This document shows positions 20,401-53,785 of a DNA stretch of 64,000 bases, one piece after another. The DNA comes from Amphiscolops sp. MND2022 (taxonomy: Eukaryota), in assembly GCA_964187785.1 (NCBI GenBank), contig OZ076418.1, forward strand, positions 29,140,001-29,204,000. Direction: 5' to 3'. The notes beneath the pieces were generated by a model. That model made no database searches and was not told the origin of the DNA. It worked only from the letters and a program-made list of their open reading frames with translations. Made by a program: the position numbers and the translations under genes. Every line of letters begins with the position of its first letter. Positions within the stretch are counted from its first letter, which is position 1.

Positions 20401-20403
20401 CTG

Positions 20404-21610: not shown

Positions 21611-22678
21611 CATCATCACTTCCCATGATGCGGCCGGCCCTATGAAAGGTCCAATTTTACAGCTTGTTGTTGTTCGGGCTTTTGAAGAACCCATTTGCCT
21701 TTCCATCAGTGATATTTCGCCTGCAAATTCATCTGTCGAATTTTTTGCTTCTACTATGCCATCTTGATTCAGTTGAACCCCTACGTGCATTTCATCTAAT
21801 ATGTATGAGCTATGTTCAAATTTCCAAGCTCGTTTCTCGAATCGATTGCGGTGGCCATTGCTCAATTGAGTGTACACATTAGTGTTTGCTTGTGCCACTG
21901 CATCCATTCCCGAGTTTCCATTACCTAACCAGTTGTTACAATTTTCACTCTCGTTTGAAATAAATTTGTCCGGCATTTTTTCTTTCAGCTCAACATCATG
22001 TCTTCAACCAAATAACACAATTACGAATTTTGTTTCATTACTTGCCTTCTCTTCAGCCGGTTTGTCTTGTTCCAACAAACCACCAAGGGGTCTTCGATAA
22101 ATCGTTTTGCCTCGTGGAACTTCATGAAGTTAAATTTGGCACTCATTCACGAATCCAATTTCTCTGTCCAATTGAGAACACCTTTTTCCTTCTTCAAGTG
22201 TTAGAGTGTTGACAGTAACATTCATTGCTTGCAATTGAGTTGATTGCTTTTCTTTTACATGCTGTCGCACAGAGGCGACATCCATATTCTGTTTCACCAA
22301 ATCAAGCATCACAGTAAATTCTTCCAAGGTTCGGAGGTTTGATTTAATTGCAAAACTTTCATGTCCGTTCTTTTCTTCTGTAATTGAGAAACCCACATTT
22401 GCGTCTTGTTTGACTACCATATGGTCACCCACAGCTAGGTGCATTTCGTCTTGCCAGACTTGCTTGATCTCCAAAAGGAGAGGTTTAGTACTGTCTTCCT
22501 GCCAGTTTCTTTCTACAACGAATATGTCTGGTGAGTTCTCCGTATTTTCCTTGGACATTTCGTATACGCTGCAGTGGGAAGTACACAATTCCAGGCTCGA
22601 CCAAGTTTTCATCTGATCCACCAATGGATCCACATCTGCAAAAACCAAACTTTCATTGGCGAGCTTCGCAGTTTCTTG

Positions 22679-25651
22679 TTAAGGCAAGGGTCCACTAAGC
22701 ATCCACCCCAATTTTGTCAATACGGCCCAAGGTTTTGACCTTCCACATTTTCTATACCCAATCGCTCTATGCAAGTGGTAACAATCTTGTCCCAAAATGA
22801 CTTTTACATCTTTCTGGTTGATGGTAGAATCTTTCAGCATTGACAGGTGTGGATATTCTTCCTTCAATTTCTTGAGGTTGTACGTTCGATTTCCTGCATT
22901 TACGTCGGGATGACTATAGGCCATGATATCTTCTTTGACTTTTCCTTGTTGATCTCCAATCCTGACCCGCAGTCGTTTGCTACTAATATCTGACGCACCA
23001 TGAATCCCTGCAACATTCAAATCCACTGGCTGTCCCGTCAGATTTAGTGTTTTCATCAGGCTCTCGTCCACAAAGGACAGGCTTGCTCCAGAGTCACACA
23101 AAGCGAACGTATTCACATTTTTGCTCACACTCCCTATCGATACTGGAAGGACGGGAAGCACTCCACTGCTTCTCATTGAGGACAGGTTAGAAACCTCCTC
23201 GACATTTTCATTATTTTGCTTTTGTTCAACGTCCTTGTATGATCTATGCAGCAATCTGTGATGAGGTTTTCCGCAACCATTGACGTCGCAGAGTCTACCA
23301 GAGCAATTTTTCATCTGATGTGCGTCTGACAAACATTTGAAGCACAATTTCAGCTCTTTCGCCTTTTGTCCTCTTTCTTCGACGTTCATCTTCTTGAACT
23401 TCTCACATTTCCATATTGGATGTTTGCCATCTTTCAGCGCACACTCTCGTTGATTCTTCGAGTTGTCATTTGCTGTGTTTGTTGCTGACGTTGCAAACGT
23501 AGAGCCTTTTGCCTTTTCTTTGTAGCTCGTCTTCGCGCGATCAGCATTCGGGTTTGAAGACAAAAGCAATTCGTCTTGAACATCTGCTATATCATTGAGC
23601 CATTCACTGAACACAGGGAGTCCAGGTTGATACAGGTTCATTTGCTTCACATGAGTGAGCCACTTCGTTTTCATGTCCAGTGTTAACTTCCTTGTGGCGC
23701 TGCCCAGAACTCCTTCTGAGTTTAGGTCTCCCACGTAGTTGAATTGTGTCAAACCATTCACGCAACTCGACACTATTCTCGCAAACTTGATAAATGCGGC
23801 TCCATCATAAGATTTCATCGGTGGAAAAGAATATATTCGCTTCAGCTGAGCATTCACAACCATCTGTGGTTTTCCAAAGTTTCGAACTAGCACGTTCCAC
23901 GCCACATTGTACATCTCAGCGGTGTACCCAAGGCCAGCAATCGCCTCTTTGGCTTTGCCCGTTACCATTGTTTTCAGGTGATTCATCTTCACACTGTCGT
24001 CTATGTTTGCTGCGTGGACGGTTGCTTGAAACAGTTGTGACCACTCTGGCCACTCCAATGGGTCACCTGAAAATTCTGCCAACTTCAGTTTTGGCAAGCT
24101 AGATCTGATGTAGTAGTCATCTCTTACGTTCGACCCCATGTTTGGCCCTTGACTTGGCGAATACTGCTTCTGTGTGTTCGCAAGCTGTGGTACTTGAAAT
24201 GAACCACTCGGAATGCCTCCAAACGTAGGTGGTAACCGATTCTGGTCTGCACTGAGAGTCATCGACGGCTTCGATGAGGTGATTTTCACTTCTGGTTGTG
24301 CTGTTGCTCTTTGACTGCCAACATCTATGACAGTCTTTGTTCTGTCCTTTCCAATATCTCGCACAGCGGTCTCTGTGGACATGACTGGTTTCAATGAGGA
24401 CTTCAAATCCCTCACTTGCGCGGAGCCTTGTCCTCCATGAGTTGATCGTACTGTAAACACTGGTGCTGAGATGGACGTTTGCTGGTATACAGATGGCACG
24501 TTAATCGGCGATGCTACGTTTCCAGCTTCTTCGGTCTTGTCCATCCAATCTGAGACTTTTGTCAGATTGTCGTCTGGGGTCCCGACTGGTGAGATACTTC
24601 TGAAACTAGACCCACAACTACTCGGAACTTTCGCCATCTCTATTTCCTTTTCAGCAATTCTGGCCTTGCGGGCCACCTCTTCTCGCAAGTCTGTTATCTC
24701 CTTCTCTTTTGCTTCTCGTTCCAGTTTCTCCAGGCGCATTTGCAGTTCTTCGTGCTCTTTCAGAGCTTTCAGTTCTAAATGCATAACTCGTCTTGCACTT
24801 GATGTTTTTGAAATCACTGAGGTTTTGTTGCTTTTGGCTCTTTCACTTCGCGAATGTATGCTCAATTCTTCTATTGGCAATGATCTAGCTCCATTTCTTG
24901 GATCTTGGCTGTCATCCGCGTTGTGACCATCATGTTCCTTTTGCTCATCGTCTGGTTGCGGCTCCTTTTGTGGTGAAGTACCATTTTTACTCGATTTGTC
25001 TGCGGCTACGTTTGCGCGAACGTCTGCTAGTCTTTGTTCGGCGTCTTCAAGGCTTCGCAAAATGGCTCCAGCTTCTCCTGACTTCAGGAGGGCTTCAATT
25101 TTCAGTTTGAGGTCAGACCTCTCTTGAAGCAATTCTTGACATGCCGCTGCATAATCTTCTTTGGCGTCCTCGCCGTTTTCAATTCGTTCATCGCGCAACT
25201 TTTCGTTGTGGGCGATCTTTTCATCAATAGCACGTTTCTCCTCTTCAAGATCCAAATAGTTTAGTATCTGATTTTCATCTTGCAATGCTGACATCAGTAT
25301 TATCACCCTTCCAGTGTTAGAGTCTTGTCGCTGCAACTCAACAAATCGGCTCTTCATCGCTTGGATCACTGTTGAGAACATTTCGGGTATCTGGGGTTGG
25401 TACTTGATTTTGATTGCATTTTGGATTGCCTTAAAGAGTCGTTCTCGCTTGTTTATGACATCTATTCGTCGTAACAGCAGCTCTGCTATCTGTTTGTTGT
25501 CATCATTGCTAACTAGGTTTTCATCAAATGCTCTGATCGTCTTGCCGTGCTCGCAAGCTGCATTCCAATGACTCACAATTTGGGCCTTGTCTACAGAGTT
25601 CTTCAGAAAATTTTCAACCTTGTTGATATCAAACCGTTTTTATTGAGCCAT
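22679..25651 (-). CDS. gag-pro: BEL/Pao Gag-protease (disrupted)
   Basis: 965-aa ORF with the LPKLKLAEFSGDPLEWPEW capsid region, triple Cys/His knuckle C..KDGKHPIWKC...CFKCLSDAHQMKNC...CDVNGCGKPHHRLLH, and protease ALCDSGA. The likely ATG at 25651 is followed by an in-frame TAA at codon 4; the ORF terminates at 22679. Confidence 0.88.
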
Positions 25652-25676
25652 TTCTTCTCTTCTTGATTGAACTCAG

Positions 25677-25890
25677 TTCCCAGAGTCACAATAGCCCAAA
25701 CTCCCAGAGACACAATAGCCCACTCTCCCAGCGACACAATAGCCCAATCTCCCAGAGACACAGTAGCCCAATCTCCCAGAGACACAGTAGCCCAATCTCC
25801 CAGAGACACAATAGCTCAATCTCCCAGAGACACAATAGCCCAAACTCCCAGAGACACAATAGCCCAATCTCCCAGAGACACAGTAGCAGA
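25677..25890. repeat. 24-bp tandem repeat (ctcccagagacacaatagcccaat), about 9 copies, in the BEL leader
   Basis: Directly visible; accounts for the repetitive ORFs in the track. Confidence 0.95.
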
Positions 25891-26029
25891 GACTCCAAGA
25901 TCCAGACACTTGTTCTTCTTGGACAATCTTTTGTTGTCTACCAACGAGTCGTCTTCTTCTAGTCCGGGTCGTCCACCAACGAGTTGTCCGTGTCGTCCAC
26001 CAACGAGCTGTCCGGGTTCGCGGACCAAA

Positions 26030-26479
26030 TGTAACGGCTGCTTGCCTTTATCCTGCGCTGAGGCTTGACAAACTTTACGCCGCCCTGATCCGTTGCTTAG
26101 TACTGTGGACCGTTACTAGGAGAACGTACTAGGGGTTCACAAATCGGGATTAAATTCCATGAGGGACCGCAAATCCGGTAGACTAGACAGGAGCACCGGA
26201 GATCATTTTAGTAATATGGACCGCCAGTCTGGTAGACTGGACAAAAGCTTCGGGGATCATTGCAGTCAATTGGACCACCGGTCCAGGAGACTTGACAAAA
26301 GCCCTGGAGAACGCTTTAGTCAGCTGGACCAGCAGGACCGTTGCAAATTAAATTCCAAATTCAGCATTCATGGAGGCTTAAACAGTGAGATCTCAGTGGA
26401 CTCCCGGGCCGATAAACAAGATTGCGACATTGAGCTAACACTGTATAACATGGACAAATCCGATCTTTTGAGTGGTCTG
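26030..26479 (-). repeat. Partial BEL LTR (26030-26118) plus duplicate of flank 20045-20403 (26121-26479)
   Basis: 89 bp match the LTR end; 359 bp match 20045-20403 with one substitution seen. Confidence 0.92.
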
Positions 26480-27429
26480 TGTAACGGCTGCTTGCCTTTA
26501 TCCTGCGCTGAGGCTTGACAAACTTTACACCGCCCTGATCCGTTGCTTAGTACTGTGGACCGTTACTAAACAAATCCTGGTTTTCTTGTTTTAAAGGACT
26601 GTATCTTTAGCTGGTGGGTCCGATGTGACCCGTGGAATCTCCTGCGATACCTCTTTGCACTGATTTGGATCCGATGTGATCCTGCACACACTTCCCTCAC
26701 TGTATCGTCACCCGCTCCGGCTCTCCAACTATGAGAGTAGCTACTTAGTCGCTCTGACTCTAGCGAAAAGTTGTGAAGATTGAGAAGTTGATTAATTAGT
26801 CTTGCGGTCCTAAGACCCAACTTGACTATAGCTATACAGTGGAGAAAATCTCTATCTAATAATGGTGTACATATGGTTTACAATTCCACAGTAAATATAA
26901 GCAAATATCAGTTGAAATATGTTGTATAAATAAATGACATTTAAACCATAATATGAAGTTATTGGCTAAGTAAACAAAGAATGTGGTGGTTTTGGCATGC
27001 TGGTCAGGTGGGTTAGAAAGTATGTTTACACAATGTAAATATCATAATTTCAACAGAGTTACATTTCCTTCAAGGTCATATGAGAAAATCACATAATAAT
27101 TAATACATCAAATTTGGGTATTTCATGGGGTCCGACCTAGGTCACTTTGGGTGTTAATTGCTCAGAACCCAGGGGAGATACGGGGTCGGGTGTTTCTAGT
27201 GAAAAGTTAGCGTAGCACCACTACTATACGTGTGCCAAGTTTCAAGGTGATTGAATGAGTGGTTTACCGGGACGGGGGGGTGGTGTTTTTTGGTGACGCC
27301 ATCTTTCTGGTGAAACTTGTAAATTTTCCAACTTGAATCTTGATGAATTTTCTAAAAGTTTTGAGTTGTAAGTTTCATCAGTCACGTTCGAATTTGAGTT
27401 TCTGATCTCGCAATTGACTGGCGCCAACA
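26480..27429 (-). repeat. BEL outer (5-prime) LTR
   Basis: 950-bp copy of 20404-21353, followed by TSD GTCTG. Confidence 0.92.
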
Positions 27430-28843: not shown

Positions 28844-29208
28844 AAATATTTGAAACGGATGGAGATCGTGGAGATTTGGAAGAATTTGGGAAAAATGCAA
28901 CATAGATGATAAAATTTTCCTCTCCTACAGAAGAAACTGTGGGGCTGAAAAAAATTGCGATTGAGCCTTGCTTTTGAGCATGCCCTGTTGAAATTGTTTG
29001 ATTTTTTTTCATGTTTTTCTAAGTTTCCAAGCACATTCATAATAACTTTATGAAACTCTGACAAAAGTTTCCATGTAAAAAGAAGTAACTGTTCTATTTG
29101 GTTTTTAACAAGCAGCCAGAAAGATGCATTTAAATATTGAGAGGCATACGAAGCTATGAAATTTTGCACGATTTATAATGCCGAACTGCTGTTTTTGAAA
29201 TCGGCTCG

Positions 29209-30959
29209 TGTCGCCGGGCTTCCCCTGCGAGATGTCCGGAGTGCAGCATCGATGATCAGTTCAACTTGCTCCTTCCTACCGCCTGAGACCCGAAGATCCG
29301 AATCAAAGCGTCATCAGTGGTACAGACTTCAAAAACATTTAAAGTTACCATAAACTGAGATAATCGTTTTAAATGTTTGTTCTTGTTGCTAATTTCTTAG
29401 CATTCGTTTGTGTTATAGTGTTCGTTAATGTTAAATTGGATGCCCTGTTGCCTTCATTGATTTAATTGTAACAACGGTCTGACCGCTGGCAAATCGAAAG
29501 AAAAAGAAAAACTTTGACCAAATAAATTAGTCTCTAGTGATAATGTTACTAGCTGACCCAAGCCAAGCCTTTATTTTTACTCCCACTTTACCTTATAAGA
29601 GTGTACTGTAGTTTGATATAGCTTTCAAAATAATAGAGCATTTGTAGCAAGACTATGTAGGAAGCTTTCATAATTTGCATGATGAATTATCCATGAAACA
29701 GCATACTGTGCTCATACTTCTTTTCATTGAGAGTTTATACTGCTTTGTGCAGTTCTTACTAAGCCACATATGCGGCTTTAGCTAAAAAACAGTATGATGA
29801 CTACATACGTGCGGATAGTTATGCTACTTACCGCATTATGCGGAAGTATTGTAAAAACATCATGATGATTACATCCGTGTGCACGTTTATACTCCTCACC
29901 GCATTATGCGGAAATATCTCAAAACAGCATGAAGTTTAATTCATAATTGACATAATGAACAGCACCGAACTGCATTATGCGGTTCCCATAAAACAGTATA
30001 TATGCGGATATGCTGACAGAACGTCATAATCCGCATATTGCTTCTACAGTAATTTACTGATGTAGCAGTTCTATATTTAGACCTTCTAGGGATATGACGT
30101 TATGAAGTATTTTTAATCCCTGACCCTAGAAACATGACGTTATGATGATTTGTATAAAATTGATTGTCATGCTACTAAAAATACCAACCAAAAGAATCAT
30201 TCGAAGCGAGTCCCTAAGAAATCATTTTCCCCACATTCATTCGAAAAATCTCACACAGAACACAGTCACTTAATTTCACAATCTACCCACAGTTCTCAAA
30301 CTTGGCAGTTTTCTTCCTTTGTAAAGATAACTTCCACGATTTCATTTCACCACAAAATCTTCGTAATTCAAAGATTTCTACACTCAACACTGTTTTCATC
30401 ATGGGAAATAAAAGAAATAGACGTTCAAGAAGGATAGAATCTCAGTCATTGGACAGAGAAGAGAATACTTCAGAAACAAGCTTCACTCAAGGTAATGCGA
30501 CTTTAGTTGATGTTTCTGAAAATGTTAATAACATTTTTGACAGGAACTTAGGTAGCGAACTGACAGAACCTTCGCAAATCAGCAATGAAATAGAAGTAAT
30601 ATCCCAGAGATTATTTGAACAGAACAGTAACAAGATGACACAAATCGAACAGCAACTGAATAGTAAATTCGAAGAGATACTTAGAGAAATTAGAACAAAT
30701 AGAGAAAGCAATTTGGCAAATGATGAAGAGGATGCCGAGAACAACAGGCCAGGTCCATCTAACTCGAAAAACAGAAGTCTCAGTAACAATCACGCATCAA
30801 ATACAACATTAGACAAAGACAAAAATCAGGATGATCGGTTTCATCCATCTGAAATGGGTGAATTAAGACAACCATACACGCCAGTCGGAACTGCTAATGA
30901 AACACTAGACGAAACCATCATTATAAACGAAAACAGACAGGAGAATGCCGATCATCACA
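29209..30959 (+). repeat. Gypsy 5-prime LTR (1751 bp)
   Basis: About 13 substitutions and one 8-bp indel versus the 3-prime LTR, counted by eye. Confidence 0.95.
29695..30045. promoter_or_regulatory. Cluster of CCGCAT/ATGCGG/CAGCAT motifs in the LTR, including two CCGCATTATGCGG palindromes
   Basis: Palindromes at ~29831 and ~29900, more half-sites nearby, upstream of a TATA-like gtataaaat at ~30151. The regulatory role is inferred. Confidence 0.5.
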
Positions 30960-32068
30960 TGGTGACAGGACCTACCAAGAACATCCTGAGACAAAGCTCT
31001 ACTAACTCTAACACAACAAATACAATTGGACCACACGTAACAACTCTTCTCGAACACCCTGAAACATCAGACCCTGTCAGCCAAATTGCATTAGCAATTG
31101 AAAAACTGGCACGAAAAAACCCAGAACCCTCACTCTATCACCCGAAAAACACACTCACCTTTAACGGTAAATTAGAGAAAAATGAAAAGTTCGAGTACTT
31201 TGAAGACCTTTTTCACACCACACTCAGGATGCAACCTCATCTCACTGAAGAGATGAAAATAAACCATTTTCACGCCCATCTCAGAGGACTGGCGTTAAAA
31301 ACCTTCAAAAACATACAACGCACACCTACCACAACACTTGAAGACAACTTGGTAGTATTCCGCAGAAAGTATGTCAAGCCTGAATCTAGTGGTTCAGCCA
31401 AACATAGATTCAACAGGCTTATGTTCCAACCCGAAAACCAGAAGCTGCCCGACTTTCTCGAAGATCTACAAGAGAGTGCTGAAAAAGCCTTTGGGGAAGC
31501 AGCGCCACAGATGATCGAAAGTCTCATATACGCAAAAATGCCTCCCCATCTAAAGAAATCAATCAACCAAGCGTACCTTGAGAATGGTACCTACGACCAA
31601 ATTGTACGACACTTAGAACGCGAAATGGAACTCAATGGACTCGAAGCAGATGAGCCATTAGTCAAAACACAAATGACAGCTGTAAAACAGCAAACCAACA
31701 CACAAAACACTAAAAGTTCGACACAAAACACAAAATCTAAAACCAAAACTCCCAACACAGTACCCAACAACACTCTACAAAACAACCAATGTCGTTATTG
31801 CAAAGAAGAAGGTCACATGGCGAAGGAATGCCCAAAACTTGCAAAACGGCAAAAACTCGATAATGATCCAGATGCACCACGATGCTCCCATTGTAACACT
31901 ACAGGACATGAAGAACCCAACTGTTACTTTGGAGCTAACATGGAAAATCGTCCACCCAAATGGACACTGACAAAAAATCAACAAAAACTCATTGACGAGT
32001 ATAAAAAATCAAACAAGCCCATCAACCCACGAAGCACGAAACCTTCAACATCGAAGGCCTTAAACTAA
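30401..32068 (+). CDS. gag: Gypsy Gag (two CCHC knuckles)
   Basis: ATG at 30401; FNGKLEKNEKFEYFEDLF capsid region; CRYCKEEGHMAKEC and CSHCNTTGHEEPNC; ORF intact. Confidence 0.9.
   Translation: MGNKRNRRSRRIESQSLDREENTSETSFTQGNATLVDVSENVNNIFDRNLGSELTEPSQISNEIEVISQRLFEQNSNKMTQIEQQLNSKFEEILREIRTNRESNLANDEEDAENNRPGPSNSKNRSLSNNHASNTTLDKDKNQDDRFHPSEMGELRQPYTPVGTANETLDETIIINENRQENADHHMVTGPTKNILRQSSTNSNTTNTIGPHVTTLLEHPETSDPVSQIALAIEKLARKNPEPSLYHPKNTLTFNGKLEKNEKFEYFEDLFHTTLRMQPHLTEEMKINHFHAHLRGLALKTFKNIQRTPTTTLEDNLVVFRRKYVKPESSGSAKHRFNRLMFQPENQKLPDFLEDLQESAEKAFGEAAPQMIESLIYAKMPPHLKKSINQAYLENGTYDQIVRHLEREMELNGLEADEPLVKTQMTAVKQQTNTQNTKSSTQNTKSKTKTPNTVPNNTLQNNQCRYCKEEGHMAKECPKLAKRQKLDNDPDAPRCSHCNTTGHEEPNCYFGANMENRPPKWTLTKNQQKLIDEYKKSNKPINPRSTKPSTSKALN
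30960..30972 (+). other. Primer-binding site of the Gypsy element
   Basis: TGGTGACAGGACC directly abuts the LTR-terminal CA. Priming tRNA not determined. Confidence 0.8.
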
Positions 32069-35000
32069 TACAGCCACGCCTTCAAGCAGAAACACCACAA
32101 AAACAACACTCTACTGATGACTGGCAGCATCAGTTGAGTCTCAAACCAACAAAAATCACAGTCTTTGATCATAAAACCAACAAAACCGACTCTCACACTA
32201 CAGACACATCAACTACAACTCCAGATACCCAAACAGAGGATTTATATGACCTACTCAAGGATGCTCCTGATAACTACATTCTACGACAGATCTTTGAACC
32301 TGCAACCGAAACAGAAACACAAAATCAACACCCTAACACCTCACAACCTCAAGAAACACAAACTGATCACCTAAACACAATCCACATCGACAACTCAAAC
32401 CGACGAAGACGTCACCTCAGAATTAACCAAAACTCTCTTTTGTGCATCACCTGGAAAACAACCCCTCCTTGATAATGATGTTTTCAATCATCTAACTACA
32501 GATGAAGGCAATAACATCATGTATTTGAACCTTTCTACAAACCTTACACTGAAAAAGAAACGCCATATGTACTATTTCCCAATGGATTTCGAAAAACTAA
32601 CTCTGGATGGACTCATAGATACAGGCGCCTTAACAAGCGCGATTTCAGAAGCTGATCTTAATAAAATCAAACTCTTATCAAACGAAGCAATCAAAGACAC
32701 TGGCCCAGCACCTAACTTCCAAATTATGGTGGCGAACGGTCAGCTTGAACGCCCCATTGGAACCGTCCTCCTCGAATTCGAGGTAGCAGATTTCCACTTT
32801 CAAGAGAATTGCATAGTAATGAAGACACTACCAAACCCACTTATTGGCCTGTGCTTCTTACAAAGACACAACGCTCTTTTCGATATTCGACAAGGAATCA
32901 TTACATTCCCATACTTGTCAATGCAATTGCGTCCCGAACACACAACAAACACCCGAACAGCAACACCCTTGCTGACTGAAACCACTTATACCCTACAACC
33001 TGGATTAACTCTTGCAATCTCCAGCAAAATGCCACACTTGATAGACCACAATGCAACAGGAATTGTTACTCCGTCATCACACATGGAGGAACATGAGAGC
33101 ATTTTCATTACCTCATCATTAAGCACAGTCAACAACAACGCAGTGGGTTACCAAGTGATCAATTTCTCGGATATGCCTTACACCCTTCCAGTGGACACAC
33201 ACATGGCAGATTTCCGAGTTCTCACACCAGAACAAATCAAACACATCAAACCAGTTGATCCATCAACCCTCACCTTCATGATGCATCAACATATAGAGAA
33301 CACCGACCTTTACCTCAACCAACTGATGAAAACAAACCATTCATCTGATGAACAAGAAACGTATTGGTTCCCGACACCTGAACAACCTGGGGATCCAGAA
33401 ACATACACACCCATACAAAAACGAATTTACGACGAACTACTGGAGCTCAAACAACTTGAACAATTGAACCCAAACGACCACGCAGAATCTAGAAAGCAAT
33501 TCCTTGACCATTTCGACTGGACCGATACTACCCTAAGCCCATTCGAAAAACAGCACATTGAAGACATTCTGGTGCAATACCATGATATCTTTGCCAGACA
33601 TCGGTTTGATATTGGCACCAATAGAGAATTTAAGGTTAAATTGACTCCTAATGATGATAGGCCTGCCTACAGTCAAAGTCTCCCTAGGCCAATCAACCTC
33701 AAAGACGACATAACTGTTGAACTAGCCCTTCTCCATCGTTATGGTATCATCACAACTTTACCATTCTCTAAGTACGCAAGCCCCATTTTTGCCCAGAGAA
33801 AACCAAATGGACGCCTTCGTCTCTTGGTAGATCTGCGCAAAATCAACAACCTCATCACCCAAGATCACGTAAACAACAACCATCCAGTTAGCACATTGTC
33901 AGATGCTGCACAGCACATGGCCGGAAAGAAGCTTTTCTGCAAACTCGACTGCTCACAAGCATACCATTGTTTGCCGATGGCTGACTATCAGTCAATACAA
34001 ATGCTAGCTTTCAACTTCGCAAGCCGAACCTTTGCATACAGACGTCTTGCTCAAGGTCTTAGTCGTTCATTATCCGCCTTCTCTTCCTTAATGAGAGAAT
34101 ATCTAGACAAGGCCATTAAGGCTGACCAGTGTGCACAATACGTTGATGACATTGGCATAGCTGCGAACGATTCAACACAACTCTGCATCAACATCAAAAC
34201 AGTCTTTGAATGCATCAGAAATGCAGAACTTAAGTTTACAATGGCAATGGCTAAATGCCATTTTGGTGTCAAACAGGTCGACTTTTTGGGACGAACAATA
34301 ACCCCACAAGGAGTCTCACCACAAACCGAGAAAGTCAAACTATTTCTTCAAAAACTCAAATTCCCGAAATCCAAAAAAGCCCTTCAAAGGTATATTGGGT
34401 TTCTTAACTACTACAGAAACTACATCCCTCGTTTATCAGAAAAGCTGTCGCCTTTCTTCAAACTACTCAAAGAAATATCACAATTTTGCATACCAAACAC
34501 CGTTTTGGACACATTTAAAGAACTAAACCAACAACTGGAGAAATCATGCAACCTTGCTCTCAAACAACCACTACAGAACAAACAACTCTTTCTTATGACA
34601 GACGCAAGTTTCACAGCAGCCGGTTATGCCATCATGATTGAAGATGACCCTAACCAGAAACTCCAATCCAGAAGAAAAACATATGCCCCAATTGCGTTTG
34701 GGTCAAAAACGTTCAACCCAACACAACTCAAAATGTCAATTTACGCGAAAGAATTCTCAGCAATTTATTTCGCGTTTTCCGAATTTGGACACCTAATGTG
34801 GGGAAGCATCTTTCCTGTTATAGTCTTCACAGACAACCGTTCAGTAACACGCTTCTTCCAAACAAAAATAATACCACCACCCCTCTGGGACGCCTGTGAC
34901 TATGTACTGCAATATAACTTCGTCATAGCACACGTTGCAGGAGCTATGAACACAGCTGCCGATTTCCTTTCAAGAGCGGAAGTAAACCTGACTGAAAAAC

Positions 35001-37058
35001 TCGAAATGAACATCCGAAATGATGTTGCAACCAAAGCAATCGAAGTCAATATTCAGTCCACAGGAGTTGCAGAGGAAGAAACTCTTTACATCCTTCCGGA
35101 CGAATCCCCCACAGAACAGCAATTGTGGGAAGAGAAAAACACAATACGCTCTATGGCAAGAACGGAAACCCACAATGATCCAGAAAACGAAGTGTCAGAA
35201 CTCCAAACTTTCCACAAACCCACAGCGGGCACAATCAATTACCGCGAAGGACACTTCAAACACAACGCCAAAATCCGCTTGGAACAAAACAATGACCAAG
35301 TATTACGCAATCTTCGATATAAACTTGAAGGTGAACCCTACGACGAAACAGAGTTTACGCAAGATTATCGCTACAAACACTATTTACAAAAGATCACCAG
35401 AATTGAAATTAAACAAGATGTCCTAACACGAAGATACTACAATGATACTGGGATGATATCACATTACCAGATACTCTTACCAAAACAACTACTAGATGAA
35501 TTCCTTCATGCACTCCATGGACATAACGCAAATCATCCTGGAATAACAAAGATGATCCAAGAAGCCCGGCAGAAGTATTACTATCCCTGCATAGCCAAAT
35601 ACATTCGAACTTGGGTCACAAAATGCTAAATGTGTATACAAAATAAACGCATCAACAATGACCTTCTGAAAACAGAACTACTTAATTGCCCAGACTGGGA
35701 TTTGGGCCCAGAAGACATTCTACAAATGGACATTCTCCCTAATCTCCCGACAAGCGAAGGTTATGACAACATCATCACAGCAATAGACGTGTTCTCACGC
35801 TATTTGTTTGCCTATCCAGTCACCAGGATCACCGCCCCAGCAGTAGCAAAAGTCATTATGGATATTTTGCGCAAACACACATACCTACCCACAACAATTA
35901 TTGCAGATATGGGCACTCAATTCAACTCACAGGTTACCAAAGAAGTTGCAGCAGTCCTAAACATAGAACTCAAACACGCAACGACAAAACATGCCCAAAC
36001 AATTGGACTATTAGAACGTACCCATGCATCGGTTAAAGCGCATCTTAAAGCAGCCACTGGAGAATTCAGAAACAATTGGCATAAGTTTCTACCTTTGGCA
36101 GTCTTGAACCATAATACAACCTACCATGCAACACTTGGTTGCGAACCTACACGGGTCTTCCATGGAAGAATCCCGCACAATATACTCGATTTCAAACTGG
36201 GGTACAATCCAAACCCTAGATTTCAACCCCAAACTGAGGTAGCAGAAGAGGTACAAAGACGGATTGCATTACTTCATGACCAAACAAAGAAAAACATTAT
36301 GCAATCCTACCTTAAATATAAAGCATACTACGACAGGAAAGCGAAAGCAGCACCCCTTACAACAGGGGATTATTGCTTTATCTTGAACCCGAAAGCAGAC
36401 ACACAGGCAACCAAAATCCCCTTCAGAGATTTCCGTTGGGTTGGCTCTTACAAAGTCGAAAAAGTCCTACCGAATAACAATTACATTGTTCGTCGTTTGG
36501 GCACAAATAAAACCCAATTGCTTCATCGTATACGACTACGTATATACATTCCACAACCACCTCTAGCTGACAATTTTGTCAGAGAGTCTGAATGGCAAAA
36601 AGAAGATACACTTATCGCTCAAGATGTCTTATATGCCCACACCTGGGACACAAATTTTGGATCGAGCCCATTTGACACTGACCATGAAATTAATGATCAG
36701 CAAGAAGACATGGTAGAATATGAGCCTACTTCTCAACCTAGAATAAACCGCCCTCCCACCCCCGATAATTCTCAAAACAGTGGGGGGAACCCCAGCAGAA
36801 CAACCTGCTGTGACCGACAAAGAACCCCAGATAATTGATTAAACCATTACAAGAAATGAAAATCAAGAGCCCATACCAGAAATTTCAAGAAATCCAGAAA
36901 CTTCCCAAGAAACCCCAACCAAAAATTCACCAAAAACTCCCAAAAATAACCCAGAAATTGATGCACAAGAAACACAAAAAACAGTTAACACGAGAGGTGA
37001 AAAATACAACTTACGCCCGAACCCTAACCCTAACTACTCAGACTCATACAGATACTAA
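32059..37058 (+). pseudogene. pol: Gypsy Pol (PR-RT-RH-INT), disrupted
   Basis: -1 frame from gag at CTTAAAC (~32059). Motifs LIDTGA, LLVDLRKIN, KLDCSQAYH, YVDD, MTDASF, TDNRSV, HHCC, LQMDIL/IADMG/LLERTH. Frameshift at ~32390, in-frame TAA at 35627-29, further shift near 36800; ends YNLRPNPNPNYSDSYRY*. Confidence 0.93.
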
Positions 37059-37555
37059 AAAAGACAAAATCAAGAGACTCAAAGACTTTAACTAAACACA
37101 GTCTCTGTTTATCTTTTGCTCTCACATCTTTTCTCTTCATTTTTTCTTTCCCAATCAGTTACTTCAGTAACCCTTTTGAGAATTGATTTACTGGAATCAA
37201 CAAAACTAACTAAACCGAATCAGGTGTAATCAACCTGAAGCAAAGCAAACAAAGTATACAAAGAACAAAGCAACAAATAAATGGAATACAAGCAACACCG
37301 CAATCTATAGAAACAGTAACAACTTGACGTCTCTCATTTACCACCGGGAGATGGTCTCTTCTTTATAGAAAGCTTCTTCGCAGATTTAGTTTGGTCAGGG
37401 GGTAGAAACGGAACCTCGCTGACGAAGCGCGGAACAGCCAAAGTAGCAGTAGCCAATTGCAGAGTCTGATCGAAACCTCTTGATGACCCACCGGAAGGCC
37501 CAACCGGGATTGGCCCAGGAACAGCAAACTTCGAACTGGGTAGAGGAATTTTGGG

Positions 37556-40500
37556 CTATTTACTAGTAGAAGAAGTGACCCGATGAGTTGGCGAAGAAGA
37601 AGTTGAACTAGAAGGTTTAGGATCAACATCCAGAGAAGTCCATGCCCTTTCCTCATCAGTAACCGTGCAGGTGAAACGGGACTCAAATCTATTCTGTTGT
37701 CGTCGTCGGCGAGATGAACAACTGGAACTAACGTCCCAAACAGAATAATCGGGATTTTCCAGCAAACTCCTCCCTTTTCCGAGCAAGGAAAAAATAGGGG
37801 CAACAGTTCTAGGATTGGAAAATAACCCTAAAACGTTGGGAATGCCGACCAGTGAAGACTGAACACTCCTAACAGCAGAAGTAAAATCACAGTTGTCAGA
37901 AGCCAAGTCAGATAAAGCAACGATGAAAACAGGTGGAATGCAAATAGAGCTGGAAATTCCAAGACAAAACAATTTGAATACAGAGAACAAATTGGTGCGA
38001 CATTGGAGCTCATAATAACCGGACATGAAGGTAACCCAGTCTGTGTCGTACTGTACTTCGCAAGACCTGAACTTCTCAACAAAAGATCGGTACTCACTCA
38101 AGACGAGTGGCTTGATGGAATTTGATATCCAGTCCCGCTGTATGAGGAAGTCGCACAATTGGTCTGATTCTTCTTCGTAGTCCTCCTCTCGCCCATGTAA
38201 TATCACAGCTTCGTCGAAAACAGACATTCCTCGGATAAACTTCGACTTGCGGATGCTGTGTTTCAGAAGCAAAGTACATAGACTTTTATAAAAACACAGA
38301 GCTTGTTCAACGAAATGGGTTGGCGTCGGAAGGTCACTCTTATTGACTAAGTCGGCAAAATCTTTATTGCGAAGAAAATCGTTGACGCGTTTGAAAGGAA
38401 GATCTGAAGACAAGTCAATAGATAAGAAGCGGTCCCAGTCAGAGATGTCCCCCAAGAAAGAATCTGGCAAGATAGTCTGGAGCTGACTATACACAAATGT
38501 GGCGTAGGAACTGTAGAGTCGAAAGCCGTCTGAGGCGATCCCAGTGACTCCTTTGAAAGCCGATTGGTCTGAATTATTTTCAGATTAAGAAAAGGGACCA
38601 GACATTAAAAGAATGGAAAAAATAGAAAAGGCTAACAATGAAGAAGCACATTCCGTACTAGAAACAACTTGGCGGGATAAGTCTTGTCTTTAAATATCGT
38701 CTCATCCAAACTTTTGGGCTGAAACATCAAAGGTTGGCCATTAAAACTATGTCAGAACAACGATATCTGGAATTTCGAAAACGAATATTACCTCTTTCAT
38801 GTGGTATTTGAAAGCCTTGATCCGGTCAGTGAGACGGAGATGAGCAACCACATGATGCCAATTCTGGTACAGTTGTCCAAGAAGAATAGCGCACTTGTCA
38901 TAACTGTATTCGAAGCTACAGAGCGCCTAAAAGAACAAATTCATGCCTGTGAGAACTAATAGCATTGGAAATGAACTTAAGACATTACGCATTATGATGT
39001 CTTCCAAATACAGTAGGATGCTAAACAGCATGCAGCATAAGATACGCGGACTATGCGGATTAACCGTGAAACCAGCATAATTCAAGAAAAACAGTATAAA
39101 AGAAACAATTACGTTGTTCAGGAGAAAACAGCATAGAAGAAAAGTTCATGCGATTTTCAGGAGAAAACAGCATAGAAGAAAAGTTCATGCGATTTTCAGG
39201 AGAAAACAGCATAGAAGAAAAGTTCATGCAACTTTCAAAAGAAAACAGCATAGAAGAAAAGTTCATGCGGTTTCCAGAAGAAAACAGCACAAAGAAGTAT
39301 CCATGCGGTCTCACTAAAAGAGTCAGCATAGAAGAAAAGTTTATGCGGTTTTTGGAAGAAAACAGTATAAAGGAATACTCATGCAGTTTTCGAAAGAAAA
39401 CTACATAAAAAAGCATCCATGCAGTTCCCGTAATGGAATGGCATGGAAGATGTGATTATGCGGTTTTCGGAAAAGGTGGCATAAGGGAATACCCACACAA
39501 GCGGAAAAAAAACAGTATAAAGATAGAATCTATGCAGTTTGCAGAAAACAATGGCTATGCGGAGTAGCAGCATAATGAAATGAAGAAACTATGGTCAAGA
39601 TCCAACAAAGTATGCGGTAATATGCGGTTTTCTGAAGACGTCTTAGGAGTGTTGATTACGGTTAGGAAGGGACATAATAATAGTTAAACAATAGAAATGC
39701 TTACTTCTCGAAGCTCCTGCAAATTGTTGAGCCAAACTGATCCCAAAGCTGTTCGAAGTTTCATCAAAAGAAATTGTAAATTGCTGTGTATGTCATAGCG
39801 GTCCAGGATTTTGACACATGGGCCCGCGAGCATTTTGTATAAATCTTCATAGCCGAAAGTGGCAACGACGCAAATGGGTGTGGATTGGTTCAGCTCAGTA
39901 GTCAATGTTTTACTGACCCGTCCATCAAACCCGAGCAGAGAAAACACAGTGGGTGGATTGCTTGTAACAGCAAGGAAAGAAGAGATGGCATCGAGGACTT
40001 TTGGAGTTGTTTGGAGACTGTTGGGAAACTCGGAAAGGCAGATACTATTGTACACATTCCCAGACCAGAAGGCCAAATTAACCTGAGCAACTTTAGTCGA
40101 GGAACTGAATTGAAGGGAACACAAGCCTCGTTGACCAATAGATGTGACAGAATATCGTAGTAACTCGTGAAACATGTAGACGAGTATTCCCTGTGAAACA
40201 TACGAATTAAATATAAGATAGATAGATGCCCAACTCAGTTAGATAACAAAAGATACTTACAAAAACACGTTCCTGTCTCCAGTCGTACTGCGGGAATCTA
40301 GTGGGCCCCTGTGCCTTGACATTCAAATTGGATAAGAGTGAAGTTAATAGGTCCAACTCTCCGCCAGATTGGAGTCCTAACAGGAGGAGCCTCATCTGTG
40401 AGCATGCGACTGATGAGGGATCAAGAATTTCTGTGTCTTTTGGCAACTCTCTCTGTCCTGGCAGCAGGTGACATTCGCCCAAAGTTGGAGTGATTGGAAA

Positions 40501-41567
40501 CGTCTGCTCCGCTTTTTCCCGTGCTTCGTCTAAAGCAACTCCAATTATCTCTCGCTCATTTTTGTCATAGAGTGGAAGTCCTGGTGTTTCTAATCTGATT
40601 CGATGCTCTCGAACCAAGTGGGCATCAGTACGGTAGTGCGATAAAATTTCGAGCGATCCTTTCGTCTTTAGAGACAACTCTACTTGACACACTCTACAGC
40701 GCCACTTGTGAGGATTCTCGTTCGGGTCAGCTGGACCTGTGACGAAGAATTTGAACACGGGATGCTTTTTATACATCTGAGCAGAAAGCTGCATTCGAGG
40801 TCTTGGTCTTTTGCTAACCACAACTTGTTCATCGGATGTTGTTTGGACCGGATCAGAAGTTTCGGTGTTGTATGAACGCCTGAGAGAGCGTCCTTTCCCC
40901 GGAGATGTAATTGGAGTCCGTTCTGCGGCACTACGTCGTTGTTCTGTCGGTGTGGATTCACCTCCAGAAGGGCCCGTAGTGAGTTTGGATCTTTCAACAA
41001 CGTGCGCAGACATTGATTGCTCAAGTTTCGTACTGACAAGAGTTTCAAGTCTCTGCTCCAGTGCCTCTAGGTCAGAACTTGTAACAAAATTGCCAAATTG
41101 TGGTAATGGGAGCGACTGAGCATTGGTAGCTGGTTCTTGACTTCCTTGCTCGTTGGGGGCTGTCACTGCAAGTTGACCTAAGTAACGTGTGGTAGGAGAT
41201 GTCCGAGAATGGACCCCTTCCAACATAGGAGTAGTCGCCCGTGAGGAACATTCATCTGGTAGAGATTTTTTCTCACCTGCAGGAGCGATTGAATTGAGGC
41301 AATCGGGTTGTTCTCCAGTCACATCAAGAATGAGTTGAAGTTTAGAATCAACGGAAGTGGCAAGGAAACTAACAGGTTCTTTAGGACTTGTCATGCTGTG
41401 GTCAAACGAGTGTTTAATACCGTCTTGGTCGAGAGTTACATTAACGGTTTCGCAGAAAGAGCGCTCTGGTTCAGGAGTAGATTGATGAAGGGGAACAACA
41501 GACGTCAAAACCGTCAATTCATTGGTAGATGTTTGTTTTTGGTGAGAGGATTGAGAATCGGTATGAG
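37556..41567 (-). CDS. Antisense spliced gene inside the Gypsy element: BED-type Zn finger + hAT-transposase-like protein (at least 1006 aa)
   Basis: Exons 40261-41567, 39705-40190, 38792-38926, 38637-38718, 37556-38568 join in phase via GT-AG introns of 70, 778, 73 and 68 nt. WRCRVCQVELSLKTKGSLEILSHYRTDAH finger; hAT-like CSLQFSSSTK...NLAFW and EYRSF...DW...NLFSVFKLFCL. Start exon unresolved (candidate ATG at ~41930). The hAT relationship is by eye only. Confidence 0.75.
39120..39360. repeat. 39-bp tandem repeat (ggagaaaacagcatagaagaaaagttcatgcgattttca), about 6 copies, in the long intron of the antisense gene
   Basis: Directly visible; each unit carries CAGCAT...ATGCG half-sites. Confidence 0.9.
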
Positions 41568-43163
41568 CTAGAACACATAAAGAATTGGAAATAATGATGA
41601 CATAGGTCGATGAAAATCAACCTGAAAACGGATATTATCCGACTAAATTATGGGAAACTGATCACTTCCTACTTTGAAATCAGAGTTAACTCGAAAAAGT
41701 GTTCACAACTTGAAACAGAAAATCCGAAAATGGACCTGTGGAGAGCGGATGTGAAAATAAAATTTGTTCAGCGGCGGAAACAGGAAGTCTTCAAGCGACT
41801 TTTGTGAAAGCCCAATGTGAAATCAAATACCGAGATATTTTCATCCATTAATTAAAGGCTGAAAATATACAAATCTTGTGTTGGCAAATCGGTTCCCTCC
41901 TTGTAGCCAGACATCGTTTCACCCAGTGGATCCATAAGACAAACTGCGAAACGCTGTAGTCGATTGCAAAACAAAGAGTCCGTGAGAATGGCAGCGTTGG
42001 AAGAATGAAAACCAAGTGAAGCTAAATCAGGATAACGAATCAGGAAAGCGGAATTGGATAATTCGAACGAAAAATGTGAGAAACTAAAGATGGCGGAACT
42101 ACAAATGACTTGAAGACTCTGAAAAATTGTAAAAACTATGAAGACTGAGAATTAATAATGTAGATTGAAATTATCAAGAAATCAAAATTATCAAAGCAAC
42201 TGGAAACAGAAGGCGTGGCAGTTAACGAGAAGGCAAAAAAGCAAATGGATGACGTCAATAATGGCGTTTTCAGTGTATCTCAAATCTAATTGGTCGAGAG
42301 CAAGTACTCAGTTTGGCCATTTCTGCCAGAATGACTAAATTGGAGGAATCCATACCATATAAGGAAACTGACAGACTTTGCGTATCAACTCGCAGCACAC
42401 TGTTACAGTGAAATTGCACTATGCTGTTCTGCATCAGAAACAGCATAATGGTCCAGCGCTATCGTGAACAGCAATGTGTTATAGTATAGGGAAGAAAATG
42501 TAACAAGGCAGCATAATGGGATTATGCGGAATTAAAAGTGAAACTGCATAACGTGTTTATGCGAAAAACTATCAAAGACAGCATGGTGAAGTAATAATGG
42601 CAATATGAGAAAATATGATGCATTATGATGTTTTCTGTAAGCAGTTTATGATATGAATCACTATTAACACTGCTGATTTGAATATTACACATTTACTAGT
42701 GAAAGAATGAAATTCCACAATTTTGAGAAAGATGATTCATACAACAAAGTGTGAAATCTTCACATGATGAATCTGAATGGACTACAACCATAATGTATTT
42801 TGATGATGAGTAATTAAAATTCAGTTACCCTTTATGGGGTAGCTACCGGCGATATATGAAAGAAACTCTGAAAATCAATATTTATTGATGATCAATTAAA
42901 GAAACTTGATGATGCTAGATTTCCATAAATTATTTGATAATTACCCAAAACCCGGGAGAAGGGTAAAAGTGAAAGTGTATTGGAGCAATTTATATAAAAC
43001 CCATAAACCTACAAAAACCTAGAAAACCTTACCATTTCGGTCTTAAATTTCCTGAAAACAGTTGATCTTCGCCTTACAACTTCCTAATCTTGTAATAATT
43101 CTTGATTCGAAATTGTGTAACAAATTGAACTGTTTATACCATTTGATTTGAAAAAACATAAAA

Positions 43164-44111
43164 ATGGGCAGCACACCTGTGAGAAGAAACAATAACACGA
43201 GGGACCCAATGTTAATTGACACTGCATTGGACCTAATAAATATCTCCAGTAGCTCTGAGGAAGGATTTACGGTGGAACGTTTCTCTTTGCCCGAACTAGA
43301 AGATATGTTCAGAGTTGCACCATCATCAATCACGAACATGCCAACTGCTTTCATGGGGTCGGCAGAGGCCTCATTATTCGTGACCAATTCAGTTGATGCC
43401 AGGTCAACAGGATGTATAGACACAAGAGGAACGTCTATTGAAACTGAGCTGATGGATCTATTGAACGACATACCGGATATTTCACCCACAACGTTCATCG
43501 ATACCTCCGACGAAGAAATGAACCCCTTCCCAGAGGCTAATTTCGCGAATGTACAAAGGAACGCGTATGGTCGCCCTACCCAGAGAGTGTGCCCTATGCC
43601 CAGACAGCAACAAGAGACACAACCTCCTAATGCGAATCTACCAACTATACCCAGCCGAACAAGCGCCTTTACAGCGTATACAGCACCACAGCAGAGAACA
43701 ACTGACCCGAATCCTCGTCCTACACAACAAGCACAGTATTTGCCGATGCCCATCCCGTTCTACCCTAATGCGTGGAACAATGTGGGATATGGGACATTGG
43801 GTCATAATATGCAACCACCACCATCAAGCAACGTTCCCGCTCATAACGGAACCTTGTTGCAAATGAACCCTCCAGTCATGCCCCAGGTCGCAGGTTATTG
43901 CCCAGGTTGCACTAAAACCTATGACCAAATCGCAGTAGAGACATTGACCAACTACGTTGCTTGGTCCGAGTATCCTGATGAAACAATCCGCGACAGAAAC
44001 GTCAGATCAAGGGCTTTTGTGGACGGATTTGGAGCTGCGTTAATCTGCTTCAAAAATGCTGGACTGTCGCCGGGCTTCCCCTGCGAGATGTCCGGAGTGC
44101 AGCATCGATGA
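43164..44111 (+). CDS. Gypsy accessory ORF3, unknown function (315 aa)
   Basis: Intact ATG-initiated ORF; acidic then Pro/Gln-rich body and a compact C-terminal region with CPGC; last 47 nt lie inside the 3-prime LTR. Confidence 0.7.
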   Translation: MGSTPVRRNNNTRDPMLIDTALDLINISSSSEEGFTVERFSLPELEDMFRVAPSSITNMPTAFMGSAEASLFVTNSVDARSTGCIDTRGTSIETELMDLLNDIPDISPTTFIDTSDEEMNPFPEANFANVQRNAYGRPTQRVCPMPRQQQETQPPNANLPTIPSRTSAFTAYTAPQQRTTDPNPRPTQQAQYLPMPIPFYPNAWNNVGYGTLGHNMQPPPSSNVPAHNGTLLQMNPPVMPQVAGYCPGCTKTYDQIAVETLTNYVAWSEYPDETIRDRNVRSRAFVDGFGAALICFKNAGLSPGFPCEMSGVQHR

Positions 44112-45823
44112 TCAGTTCAACTTGCTCCTTCCTACCGCCTGAGACCCGAAGATCCGAATCAAAGCGTCATCAGTGGTACAGACTTCAAAAACATTTAAAG
44201 TTACCATAAACTGAGATAATCGTTTTAAATGTTTGTTCTTGTTGCTAATTTCTTAGCATTCGTTTGTGTTATAGTGTTCGTTAATGTTAAATTGGATGCC
44301 CTGTTGCCTTCATTGATTTAATTGTAACAACGGTCTGACCGCTGGCAAATCGAAAGAAAAAGAAAAACTTTGACCAAATAAATTAGTCTCTAGTGATAAT
44401 GTTACTAGCTGACCCAAGCCAAAACTTTATTTTTACTCCCACTTTACCTTATAAGAGTGTACTGTAGTTTGATATAGCTTTCAAAATAATAGAGCATTTG
44501 TAGCAAGACTATGTAGGAAGCTTTCATAATTTGCATGATGAATTATCCATGAAACAGCATACTGTGCTCATACTTCTTTTCATTGAGAGTTTATACTGCT
44601 TTGTGCAGTTCTTACTAAGCCACATATGCGGCTTTAGCTAAAAAACAGTATGATGACTACATACGTGCGGATAGTTATGCTACTTACCGCATTATGCGGA
44701 AGTATTGTAAAAACATCATGATGATTACATCCGTGTGCACGTTTATACTCCTCACCGCATTATGCGGAAATATCTCAAAACAGCATGAAGTTTAATTCAT
44801 AATTAACATAATGAACAGCACCGATAAATTATACTGCATTATGCGGTTCCCATAAAACAGTATATATGCGGATATGCGGACAGAACGTCATAATCCGCAT
44901 ATTGCTTCTACAGTAATTTACTGATGTAGCAGTTCTATATTTAGACCTTCTAGGGATATGACGTTATGAAGTATTTTTAATCCCTGACCCTAGAAACATG
45001 ACGTTATGATGATTTGTATAAAATTGATTGTCATGCTACTAAAAATACCAACCAATAGAATCATTCGAAGCGAGTCCCTAAGAAATCATTTTCCCCACAT
45101 TCATTCGAAAAATCTCACACAGAACACAGTCACTTAATTTCACAATCTACCCACAGTTCTCAAACTTGGCAGTTTTCTTCCTTTGTGAAGATAACTTCCA
45201 CGATTTCATTTCACCACAATATCTTTGTAATTCAAAGATTTCTACACTCAACACTGTTTTCATCATGGGAAATAAAAGAAATAGACGTTCAAGAAGGATA
45301 GAATCTCAGTCATCGGACAGAGAAGAGAATACTTCAGAAACAAGCTTCACTCAAGGTAATGCGACTTTAGTTGATGTTTCTGAAAATGTTAATAACATTT
45401 TTGACAGGAACTTAGGTAGCGAACTGACAGAACCTTCGCAAATCAGCAATGAAATAGAAGTAATATCCCAGAGATTATTTGAACAGAACAGTAACAAGAT
45501 GACACAAATCGAACAGCAACTGAATAGTAAATTCGAATAGATACTTAGAGAAATTAGAACAAATAGAGAAAGCAATTTGGCAAATGATGAAGAGGATGCC
45601 GAGAACAACAGGCCAGGTCCATCTAACTCGAAAAATAGAAGTCTCAGTAACAATCACGCATCAAATACAACATTAGACAAAGACAAAAATCAGGATGATC
45701 GGTTTTATCCATCTGAAATGGGTGAATTAAGACAACCATACACGCCAGTCGGAACTGCTAATGAAACACTAGACGAAACCATCATTATAAACGAAAACAG
45801 ACAGGGGAATGCCGATCATCACA
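44065..45823 (+). repeat. Gypsy 3-prime LTR (1759 bp)
   Basis: Copy of 29209-30959; its gag fragment has a TAG at 45538-40. Confidence 0.95.
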
Positions 45824-47308: not shown

Positions 47309-47427
47309 CTCCTGTTAACGAAAAAAATTGAACCATGGATAAAAAATTTATTGGATAATACCAAGCTGGGCAAACAAAATATCAGAAACATGAGAAGTAT
47401 AAATTGGAAATAAAATTACAAAACTTT

Positions 47428-49240: not shown

Positions 49241-49358
49241 CACAAACAAAATAAATAAATAAAAAAGCTACAAAAGGCACACTGAACTATTCTGAGGAAA
49301 ATATAACTAACGTAACTCTAGAGGACACTGCTCTGAAGACGTTTTGACTAAACGCGAT

Positions 49359-53780: not shown

Positions 53781-53785
53781 ATCAA

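Follow-up and report, generated by a model that had tools for sequence, protein, structure and literature searches.

In DNA transposons of plants, VANC and TnpA are established examples of self-encoded, sequence-specific regulators whose target motifs co-evolve with them. The antisense extra genes of Gypsy retrotransposons have, to our knowledge, long been suspected of being regulators, without a target being assigned to them. For VANC21 it is the density of sites that is described as giving specificity (PMC5735166), and the same is described for TnpA (bioRxiv 10.64898/2026.08.24.746577), in a paper whose main text contains neither the word "retrotransposon" nor "LTR". Similarly, the texts of the Arabidopsis atlases name anti-silencing factors for DNA transposons only (bioRxiv 10.1101/2024.04.02.587720; PMC13547354). 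In the case of Hermes, base contacts are made by a loop and a helix, and binding to a quasi-palindrome is cooperative between two BED domains (PMC10368747). Our search of the literature, largely confined to papers outside subscription journals, found no case in which an LTR retrotransposon encodes a protein that binds motifs specific to its lineage. Here we describe a Gypsy clade in which a candidate target and a candidate reader occur as four matched pairs, which is new, starting from one element located in the window (the whole 64,000-nucleotide stretch of DNA that was analysed).

Results

The host element and its extra genes

The element has the TG...CA LTRs, the target-site duplication (GCTCG, 5 bp, at 29204-29208 and 45824-45828) and the order of gag followed by protease-RT-RNase H-integrase that characterize the Gypsy class (Table 1). 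Its two LTRs are 98.8% identical, and a PBS-like TGGTGACAGG is located at 30960, directly after the 5' LTR. The region between the integrase and the 3' LTR is occupied by an antisense intron-containing gene and by a sense ORF, which has one CxxC and gave no Pfam match. At 29209-30975 of the window, the LTR begins within the coding end of this sense ORF, so that the 5' LTR contains its final codons, and gag has its first 186 codons in the 5' LTR as well, and thus the primer-binding site falls within gag. The same arrangement was observed in all four lineages described below.

The window copy is defective, since its pol is interrupted by a stop (35627-35629) and shifts frame near 36830, the antisense gene has a premature stop, and the donor site of the candidate first exon is non-canonical. 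Five exons of the antisense gene are supported in this copy by the reading frame and splice signals. No RNA source was listed for the accessory region, a result that is neutral as to its expression. The conserved blocks next to the intergenic array consist of a GC-rich box, an A-rich box and a CCAAT-type box and are common to lineages A and C, and the corresponding region of lineage B has words that we take to be YY1-like. In addition, a TATGA(C/T)G..TATGA word, conserved in the intergenic alignment, follows the LTR array and the intergenic array (at 30095-30150 and 42613-42632) and is possibly a core-promoter element.

Table 1. Features of the retrotransposon and of its motif arrays (positions in the window).
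Feature	Position	Strand	Remarks
Ty3/Gypsy LTR retrotransposon	29209..45823	+	16.6 kb
5' LTR	29209..30959	+	TG...CA
LTR motif array	29679..30036	.	three 26-bp inverted pairs (29679, 29770, 29838)
gag	30401..32068	+	with zinc knuckle
pol	32375..36838	+	protease, RT, RNase H, integrase
Antisense gene, last exon	37334..38568	-	premature stop in window copy at 37556-37558
Antisense gene, small exon	38637..38718	-	27 codons
Antisense gene, small exon	38792..38926	-	45 codons
Intron motif array	39026..39627	.	five 26-bp inverted pairs
Antisense gene, middle exon	39705..40190	-	predicted helix, three strands, helix
Antisense gene, finger exon	40261..41567	-
C-x2-C...H-x5-H BED-like finger	40618-40698	-	loop LSLKTKGSLE
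Antisense gene, candidate first coding exon	41875..41914	-	ATG + 13 codons; proposed from conservation
Promoter-like conserved blocks	42209..42337	.	7 lineage-A elements; putative function; adjoin intergenic array
Intergenic motif array	42421..42584	.	between divergent genes; three 26-bp inverted pairs (42421, 42524, 42559)
Sense extra ORF	43164..44111	+	315 aa; terminates within 3' LTR
3' LTR	44065..45823	+
3' LTR copy of motif array	44535..44900	.

The antisense protein of the window had no match in a Pfam search, and Transposase_28 (TRP28) gave no Pfam match in any exon frame. A search of 1.84 billion proteins yielded 417 matches; the zf-BED cut-off was passed by one of 30 homologues from this search, and two more matched weakly. 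In the Atlas the protein was placed at 0.95 to zf-C2H2_12 and at 0.93 to a cluster in which 12% of the members have zf-BED (range 0.92-0.95), and one homologue was placed at 0.76 to DUF659. The structure models were of low confidence (pLDDT 38 and 45), and with these models neither Foldseek nor VIA-align gave a clear match, Hermes chains being among the non-significant ones (Foldseek E 0.15-0.44, Z 3.5). The fold of the middle exon could, with low confidence, be read as an RNase H-like start. Sequence searches of the PDB found nothing, a search for longer homologues of the last exon of the antisense gene found none, and no loci of a distant homologue were detected when metagenomes were scanned. 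Against 16 hAT proteins from the same genome, a profile comparison produced no match, nor did its reversed control, and DUF4371 had no match in the genome, with its control also lacking a match anywhere. Among inverted repeats of at least 30 bp there were no terminal inverted repeats around the antisense gene. A hAT origin of the antisense protein is plausible.

A spaced inverted pair is clustered in the non-coding zones of the element

Four half-site hexamers were counted 11 times in 29695-30045, 17 times in 39000-39650, 5 times in 42400-42650 and 11 times in 44550-44910, i.e., at 20-31 per kb, and none of the 1000 dinucleotide shuffles made for each zone attained the observed count. The flanks had 40 hexamers in 47,385 bp (0.84 per kb), with a maximum of 2 in any 650 bp, and outside the zones the element itself had 7 in 15,001 bp (0.47 per kb). 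These counts confirm two claims made in an earlier sequence-only reading of this DNA, namely that half-sites are clustered in four non-coding zones and that no such clusters are seen in the flanks. However, the two LTRs are copies of each other, and thus the four enriched zones represent three independent ones. The perfect palindromes that the reading had mentioned do exist as the 13-mer CCGCATTATGCGG, but its four occurrences in the window are restricted to the LTRs (two of them in the 5' LTR array, at 29831 and 29899), and the unit that recurs is instead a 26-bp inverted pair, ATGC[GT]G-N14-C[AC]GCAT, the inner edges of which are usually T-rich and A-rich. The CpG ascribed to the motif is present in its CCGCAT half and in no other half. 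The zone at 39.0-39.65 kb is indeed intronic, as the 45-codon exon after it has AG/GT ends in 16 of the 17 lineage-A elements, and the 39-bp tandem reported in this zone was located at 39117-39401.

When one mismatch was allowed, the 26-bp pair had 14 matches in the window, all of them within the four zones. In 11 elements, 186 start-to-start distances between such half-sites were no longer than 45 bp, and 96 of these were of 20 bp. Each LTR also contains a 68-bp tandem, which in the 5' LTR is located at 29785-29932.

The arrays are tied to the sequence of one clade

The stricter 26-bp pattern of lineage A had 1161 matches in the genome and its reversed control had none, while the exact 13-mer had 173. 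We opened 20 genome regions outside the finger-selected set, 11 of them by 26-bp matches and 9 by the 13-mer. Clade LTRs or internal parts with clusters were found in 16 regions, and the other four had a lone 13-mer in unrelated sequence with no cluster. All 11 regions opened for 26-bp matches proved to be clade sequence, so that among the sampled places the clusters were confined to the clade. The 13-mer is a poor marker, as 7 of the 19 places opened with it (3/10 and 4/9) were lone copies in unrelated repeats. One unrelated repeat with a single CCGCATTATGCGG (L001, L002 and L006) has two copies facing each other, 15.7 kb apart.

The intron array was present in 30 of the 30 top finger loci. 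Two outcomes that the sequence-only reading had regarded as damaging to its proposal, arrays that are independent MITE insertions and arrays that are missing from sister copies, were thereby checked: the arrays are not private to the window copy, and their origin as independent MITE insertions was rejected, because the 26-bp regions were clade sequence and the lone 13-mers elsewhere were without clusters.

Four finger lineages carry four motifs

Three further finger queries together with neighbouring elements provided 60 finger-bearing regions. Matches to both pol and integrase were present in 59 of them, and the remaining one had gag and pol. The clade comprises four lineages, each having its own variant of the antisense BED-like finger and its own repeated motif. 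Lineage A includes the window element and has the inverted pair described above. Lineage C, in which pol is 74-80% and the finger about 45-50% identical to the window element, has direct pairs TATRCG..A.TATGCGG placed 10 bp apart with periods of 32-33 bp, which form arrays in the LTR, between the divergent genes and within an intron; A and C have a common core, TATGCGG. Lineages B and D (pol about 58-60%) appeared motif-free when contiguous k-mers were examined. This was wrong, as a gapped scan revealed spaced dyads, GCC-N6-GGC in B and GAC-N5-GTC in D, the latter being extended by N5-GACGGCA in three D elements. The sense ORF is present in all lineages.

The motif counts formed a block-diagonal table over 59 elements. 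The median number of own motifs was 9 (4-17) in 17 A elements and 7 (0-15) in 19 C elements, with no more than one in any other lineage, 11 (7-14) in 19 B elements, with at most 4 elsewhere, and 32 (26-39) in 4 D elements, with at most 7 elsewhere, the B, C and D motifs being chosen and counted on the same elements. The exact C site was missing in one of the 19 C elements. Element C121, in which the sense ORF was not found, was excluded from the zone and motif tables. In the whole genome the C pattern had 2160 matches and the D pattern 2357, and the reversed control of each had 0.

The position of the sites also differs between the lineages. The intron array is in the last intron in C (19/19) and two exons further upstream in A (17/17), which implies that the two arose separately. 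The D and B sites are scattered, including through gag and pol, and the 6.4 kb of coding sequence contains 16-17 D sites in D elements compared to 1-2 in B elements. Two D elements that are 64% alike, with 37 and 27 sites, have 14 sites in common, about 4 being expected by chance, which demonstrates site turnover.

The finger tree gave the same four groups (FastTree support 0.94, 0.92, 0.94 and 0.87), and the RT tree and the finger tree agreed, the RT stretch being too short for the tree in 10 of 50 elements (quick IQ-TREE) and in 10 of 60 elements for a second tree. The loop preceding the finger helix is LKTKG in 14 of 17 A elements, LM[SN]RG in 18 of 20 C elements and IYGRG or IRAKG in D. 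The pattern is that the motif differs as the finger lineage differs, one motif to one lineage, with the four lineages lying on one tree and not being phylogenetically independent. With the RT tree and the finger tree in agreement, these data do not distinguish co-evolution from shared descent, and since the four lineages amount to three changes on a single tree, they would suit any other factor specific to a lineage just as well. Moreover, the KTKG loop is common to A and most B elements, yet their motifs differ. No mixed element, with the finger of one lineage and the motif of another, was found among the elements examined. Two C elements with a KTRG loop favour CATCATACAGA units; this does not amount to a clean switch within lineage C, as one LMSRG element has similar units.

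The sites and the finger are under constraint

Across the 17 lineage-A elements the tandem periods vary, being 68, 50 and 24-26 bp in the LTR and 39, 40 and 79 in the intron. The 20-bp spacing persists whatever the period, and it was the commonest tail-to-tail distance in the LTR of 11, in the intron of 15 and in the intergenic zone of 13 of these 17 elements. In 13 of 14 diverged A LTRs the half-sites were 76-93% conserved compared to 60-69% for the spacers, in pairwise alignments that may favour repeated cores; the 14th LTR was decayed (half-sites 64%, spacers 59%). The arms carry a G/A mismatch in 48 of the 71 distinct A sites, and the aligned sequences therefore indicate that the arms are retained as sequence and not as pairing. 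The dN/dS of the finger was 0.017/0.268 when compared to a 92% copy, and between A subfamilies the synonymous sites of the finger exon are saturated. Judged by these substitutions, the finger is under purifying selection.

Controls and contrary observations

In the dyad test, which was run after tandem masking, the finger-less controls comprised 10 Gypsy stretches and 4 others, and 40 shuffles were added; the controls (4-11 kb) were shorter than the test elements. The masking merges the A and C arrays away by design. The best dyad z was at most 5.8 in controls and shuffles, 9.9-13.6 in D and 4.4-7.6 in B, so that single B elements overlap the null range, and the B dyad or its inner part ranked first in 16 of 19.

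In one decayed and more distant Gypsy relative (L081, L082 and L067), with pol at 46% and a degenerate finger match (E 3e-11), no motif was detected; it possibly represents a fifth lineage. The B dyad GCC-N6-GGC occurs in a 29-bp LTR tandem in 3 of 10 finger-less elements. The family concerned (L213-L214, L217-L218 and L221-L222) is a finger-less Gypsy family which bears this tandem in LTRs of 3.2 kb, and the dyad could be either a chance occurrence or a sign that the factor of another lineage is used. Beside a finger-less Gypsy, L215-L216 (about 9680-10220 of the joined stretch) has two inverted arrays of 17-bp units with GAC-N5-GTC, which form a MITE-like element with the D core.

The left flank of the window has an excess of D sites, which is partly due to a decayed D-lineage LTR. 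This LTR, at 18862-20120, has 6 GAC-N5-GTC sites and is cut off by the neighbouring BEL/Pao element (20045-27429, minus strand), which has LTRs 99.4% alike and a 24-bp coding tandem, and in which an 89-bp piece of the LTR is present a third time at 26030-26118. On the other side, at 46500-63300, a protein-primed DNA polymerase B in fragments, together with a weak match to a major capsid protein, is indicative of a decayed Polinton-like element.

CpG transitions between the LTRs of a pair were not in excess: the rates at CpG and at other C/G were 0.025 and 0.027 in A, 0.007 and 0.012 in B, and 0.022 and 0.017 in C. Since these rates are not raised, protection from DNA methylation has no support here.

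Discussion

Sites of fixed geometry and a conserved finger, matched lineage by lineage, suggest that the antisense BED-like finger protein probably binds the sites of its own element and acts as a lineage-specific self-regulator. The sequence-only reading had proposed an autoregulatory or anti-silencing loop of this kind. That proposal gained from the finding that the arrays are not MITEs, that they are present in sister copies and that four finger lineages have four motifs; its methylation aspect did not gain, as a CpG-methylation signature was absent.

By analogy with Hermes, the contacts made by the loop and the helix would map onto the antisense finger. In each lineage, a dimer or oligomer of the antisense protein would bind the paired sites of that lineage, the geometry read being inverted with 20 bp between half-sites in A, direct with 10 bp in C, and spacers of 5-6 bp in D and B. 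Two of the three arrays adjoin likely promoters, i.e., the LTR upstream of gag and the promoter-like blocks between the divergent genes, and a high density of sites next to both the promoter in the LTR and the internal divergent one could allow the protein to tell its own copies from stray half-sites in the genome. The effect would most likely be that own copies are kept transcribed against host silencing, a direction guessed from VANC and TnpA; by the same comparison, activation or protection from chromatin silencing seems likelier than self-repression. New sites might arise by tandem expansion in A and C and by scattered point change, even within coding sequence, in B and D.

It is unlikely that host transcription factors were instead recruited separately by each lineage for germ-line or stem-cell expression, with the antisense gene doing something else. 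The TATGCGG core that A and C have in common could be explained by one host factor, the arrays adjoin conserved promoter-like blocks, similar short dyads occur in tandems of finger-less elements, and LTR motif arrays without a known self-encoded binder do exist, as exemplified by the RM boxes of Sireviruses (PMC2829016). However, at least three host factors would be needed, each with a spacing private to one lineage, and the D and B sites run throughout gag and pol, where enhancers are not expected. GCM (ATGCGGG) is presumably the host motif nearest to the A/C core, and it is avoided: G follows ATGCGG in only 5 of 212 A sites and 11 of 305 C sites.

A little less probable still is that another protein of the element, be it the sense ORF product, integrase or gag, reads the motif, either on DNA or on RNA during packaging or reverse transcription. 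All genes of the element have one tree, so lineage specificity would suit any of them; the sites are mostly on one strand, and the sense ORF is found in every lineage and has a CxxC. However, resemblance of a domain to a known binder of specific double-stranded DNA sequences is limited to the antisense protein, the sense ORF being without a Pfam match. Integrase acts at the ends of the element, and the intron arrays of A and C would be of no special use to it.

It is very improbable that no protein reads the arrays and that they merely form hairpins or are neutral, having expanded in tandem from an ancestral palindrome. A perfect A site could form a stem of 10-11 bp, and the A and C arrays are partly tandem repeats, but the mismatch between the arms in most distinct A sites speaks against pairing, as does the A opposite A seen at inner arm positions in 22-27 of the 71, with no compensating change. 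Moreover, the C arrays are direct repeats, the sites of B and D lie scattered and are still detected once tandems are masked, and the cores outlast the spacers, so that on the sequences available this explanation appears largely refuted. The least probable proposal, that the arrays are left over from subterminal repeats of a DNA transposon that was captured along with its transposase gene, draws on the many short subterminal repeats of hAT transposons that are read by BED domains (PMC10368747) and on the one array just upstream of the antisense gene, but as a sole explanation it is refuted by the location of arrays in LTRs, two different introns, gag and pol and not at the two ends of the gene, by the absence of terminal inverted repeats flanking this gene, by the different motifs of lineages with the same gene, and by the pol, integrase or gag matches that accompany the finger in all 60 regions.

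Returning to the self-regulator, we see an even chance for its broader form, in which an animal LTR clade captured a DNA-transposon protein that lost its cutting role and became a regulator of self-recognition. Such a clade would have at least four private codes with sites in LTRs, introns and gag/pol codons, representing a VANC/TnpA-type system in a class I element, with silencing apparently not based on CpG methylation. If the self-regulator holds, the arms race between silencing and element-encoded countermeasures extends to retrotransposons and animals, and the clade offers a natural series for specificity change in a BED-type finger. The thousands of sites (5,678 exact matches to three patterns), including those in solo LTRs, would then suggest regulatory networks run by element proteins.

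Comparison with known systems

The RM boxes of Sireviruses resemble the arrays in being a symmetric LTR motif of high copy number that precedes the promoter and recurs ahead of an extra gene; in contrast, Sireviruses are Copia elements of plants with a single motif genus-wide, and the text describing them names no self-encoded binder (PMC2829016). Closer in structure are the plant Gypsy elements Retand, Grande and RIRE2, which have a long region from pol to the 3' LTR with an antisense ORF predicted to be DNA-binding, and of which about half bear tandem arrays specific to the family (PMC11963269). The antisense ORFs of Retand are TRP28 ORFs, whereas the gene described here has introns and no TRP28 match, and the Retand text gives neither a common motif across zones nor a link between array and protein (PMC11963269). 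Hermes, a hAT element, has a BED-type finger, palindromic, phased short repeats and an AT-rich flank by the core (PMC10368747). Here, unlike in Hermes, there are no terminal inverted repeats and no clear catalytic triad, homology is assigned at the finger only, and the sites are not at the ends.

TnpA of Spm/CACTA is, like the antisense protein, a proposed transposase-derived regulator with clustered, family-specific motifs, and motif and lineage diversify together (bioRxiv 10.64898/2026.08.24.746577). However, TnpA remains in its DNA transposon and binds the termini (bioRxiv 10.64898/2026.08.24.746577), whereas here the gene is located in another class of element and the motifs extend over LTR, introns and coding sequence. 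VANC of the VANDAL (Mu-like) DNA transposons of Arabidopsis is likewise an element-encoded accessory protein; its short motifs are dense in the introns, intergenic and terminal non-coding regions of its own element, tandem repeats multiply them, and families differ in motif (PMC5735166). VANC sites are 9-mers in the same direction (PMC5735166), whereas the predicted sites described here are spaced pairs with no sign of CpG methylation, in an LTR retrotransposon of an apparently animal genome. Membership in the VANC family proper was rejected, as the host element is a Gypsy and not Mu-like, and the protein resembles BED-type fingers and not VANC. The system belongs to neither family, but if binding holds, it would work like VANC or TnpA.
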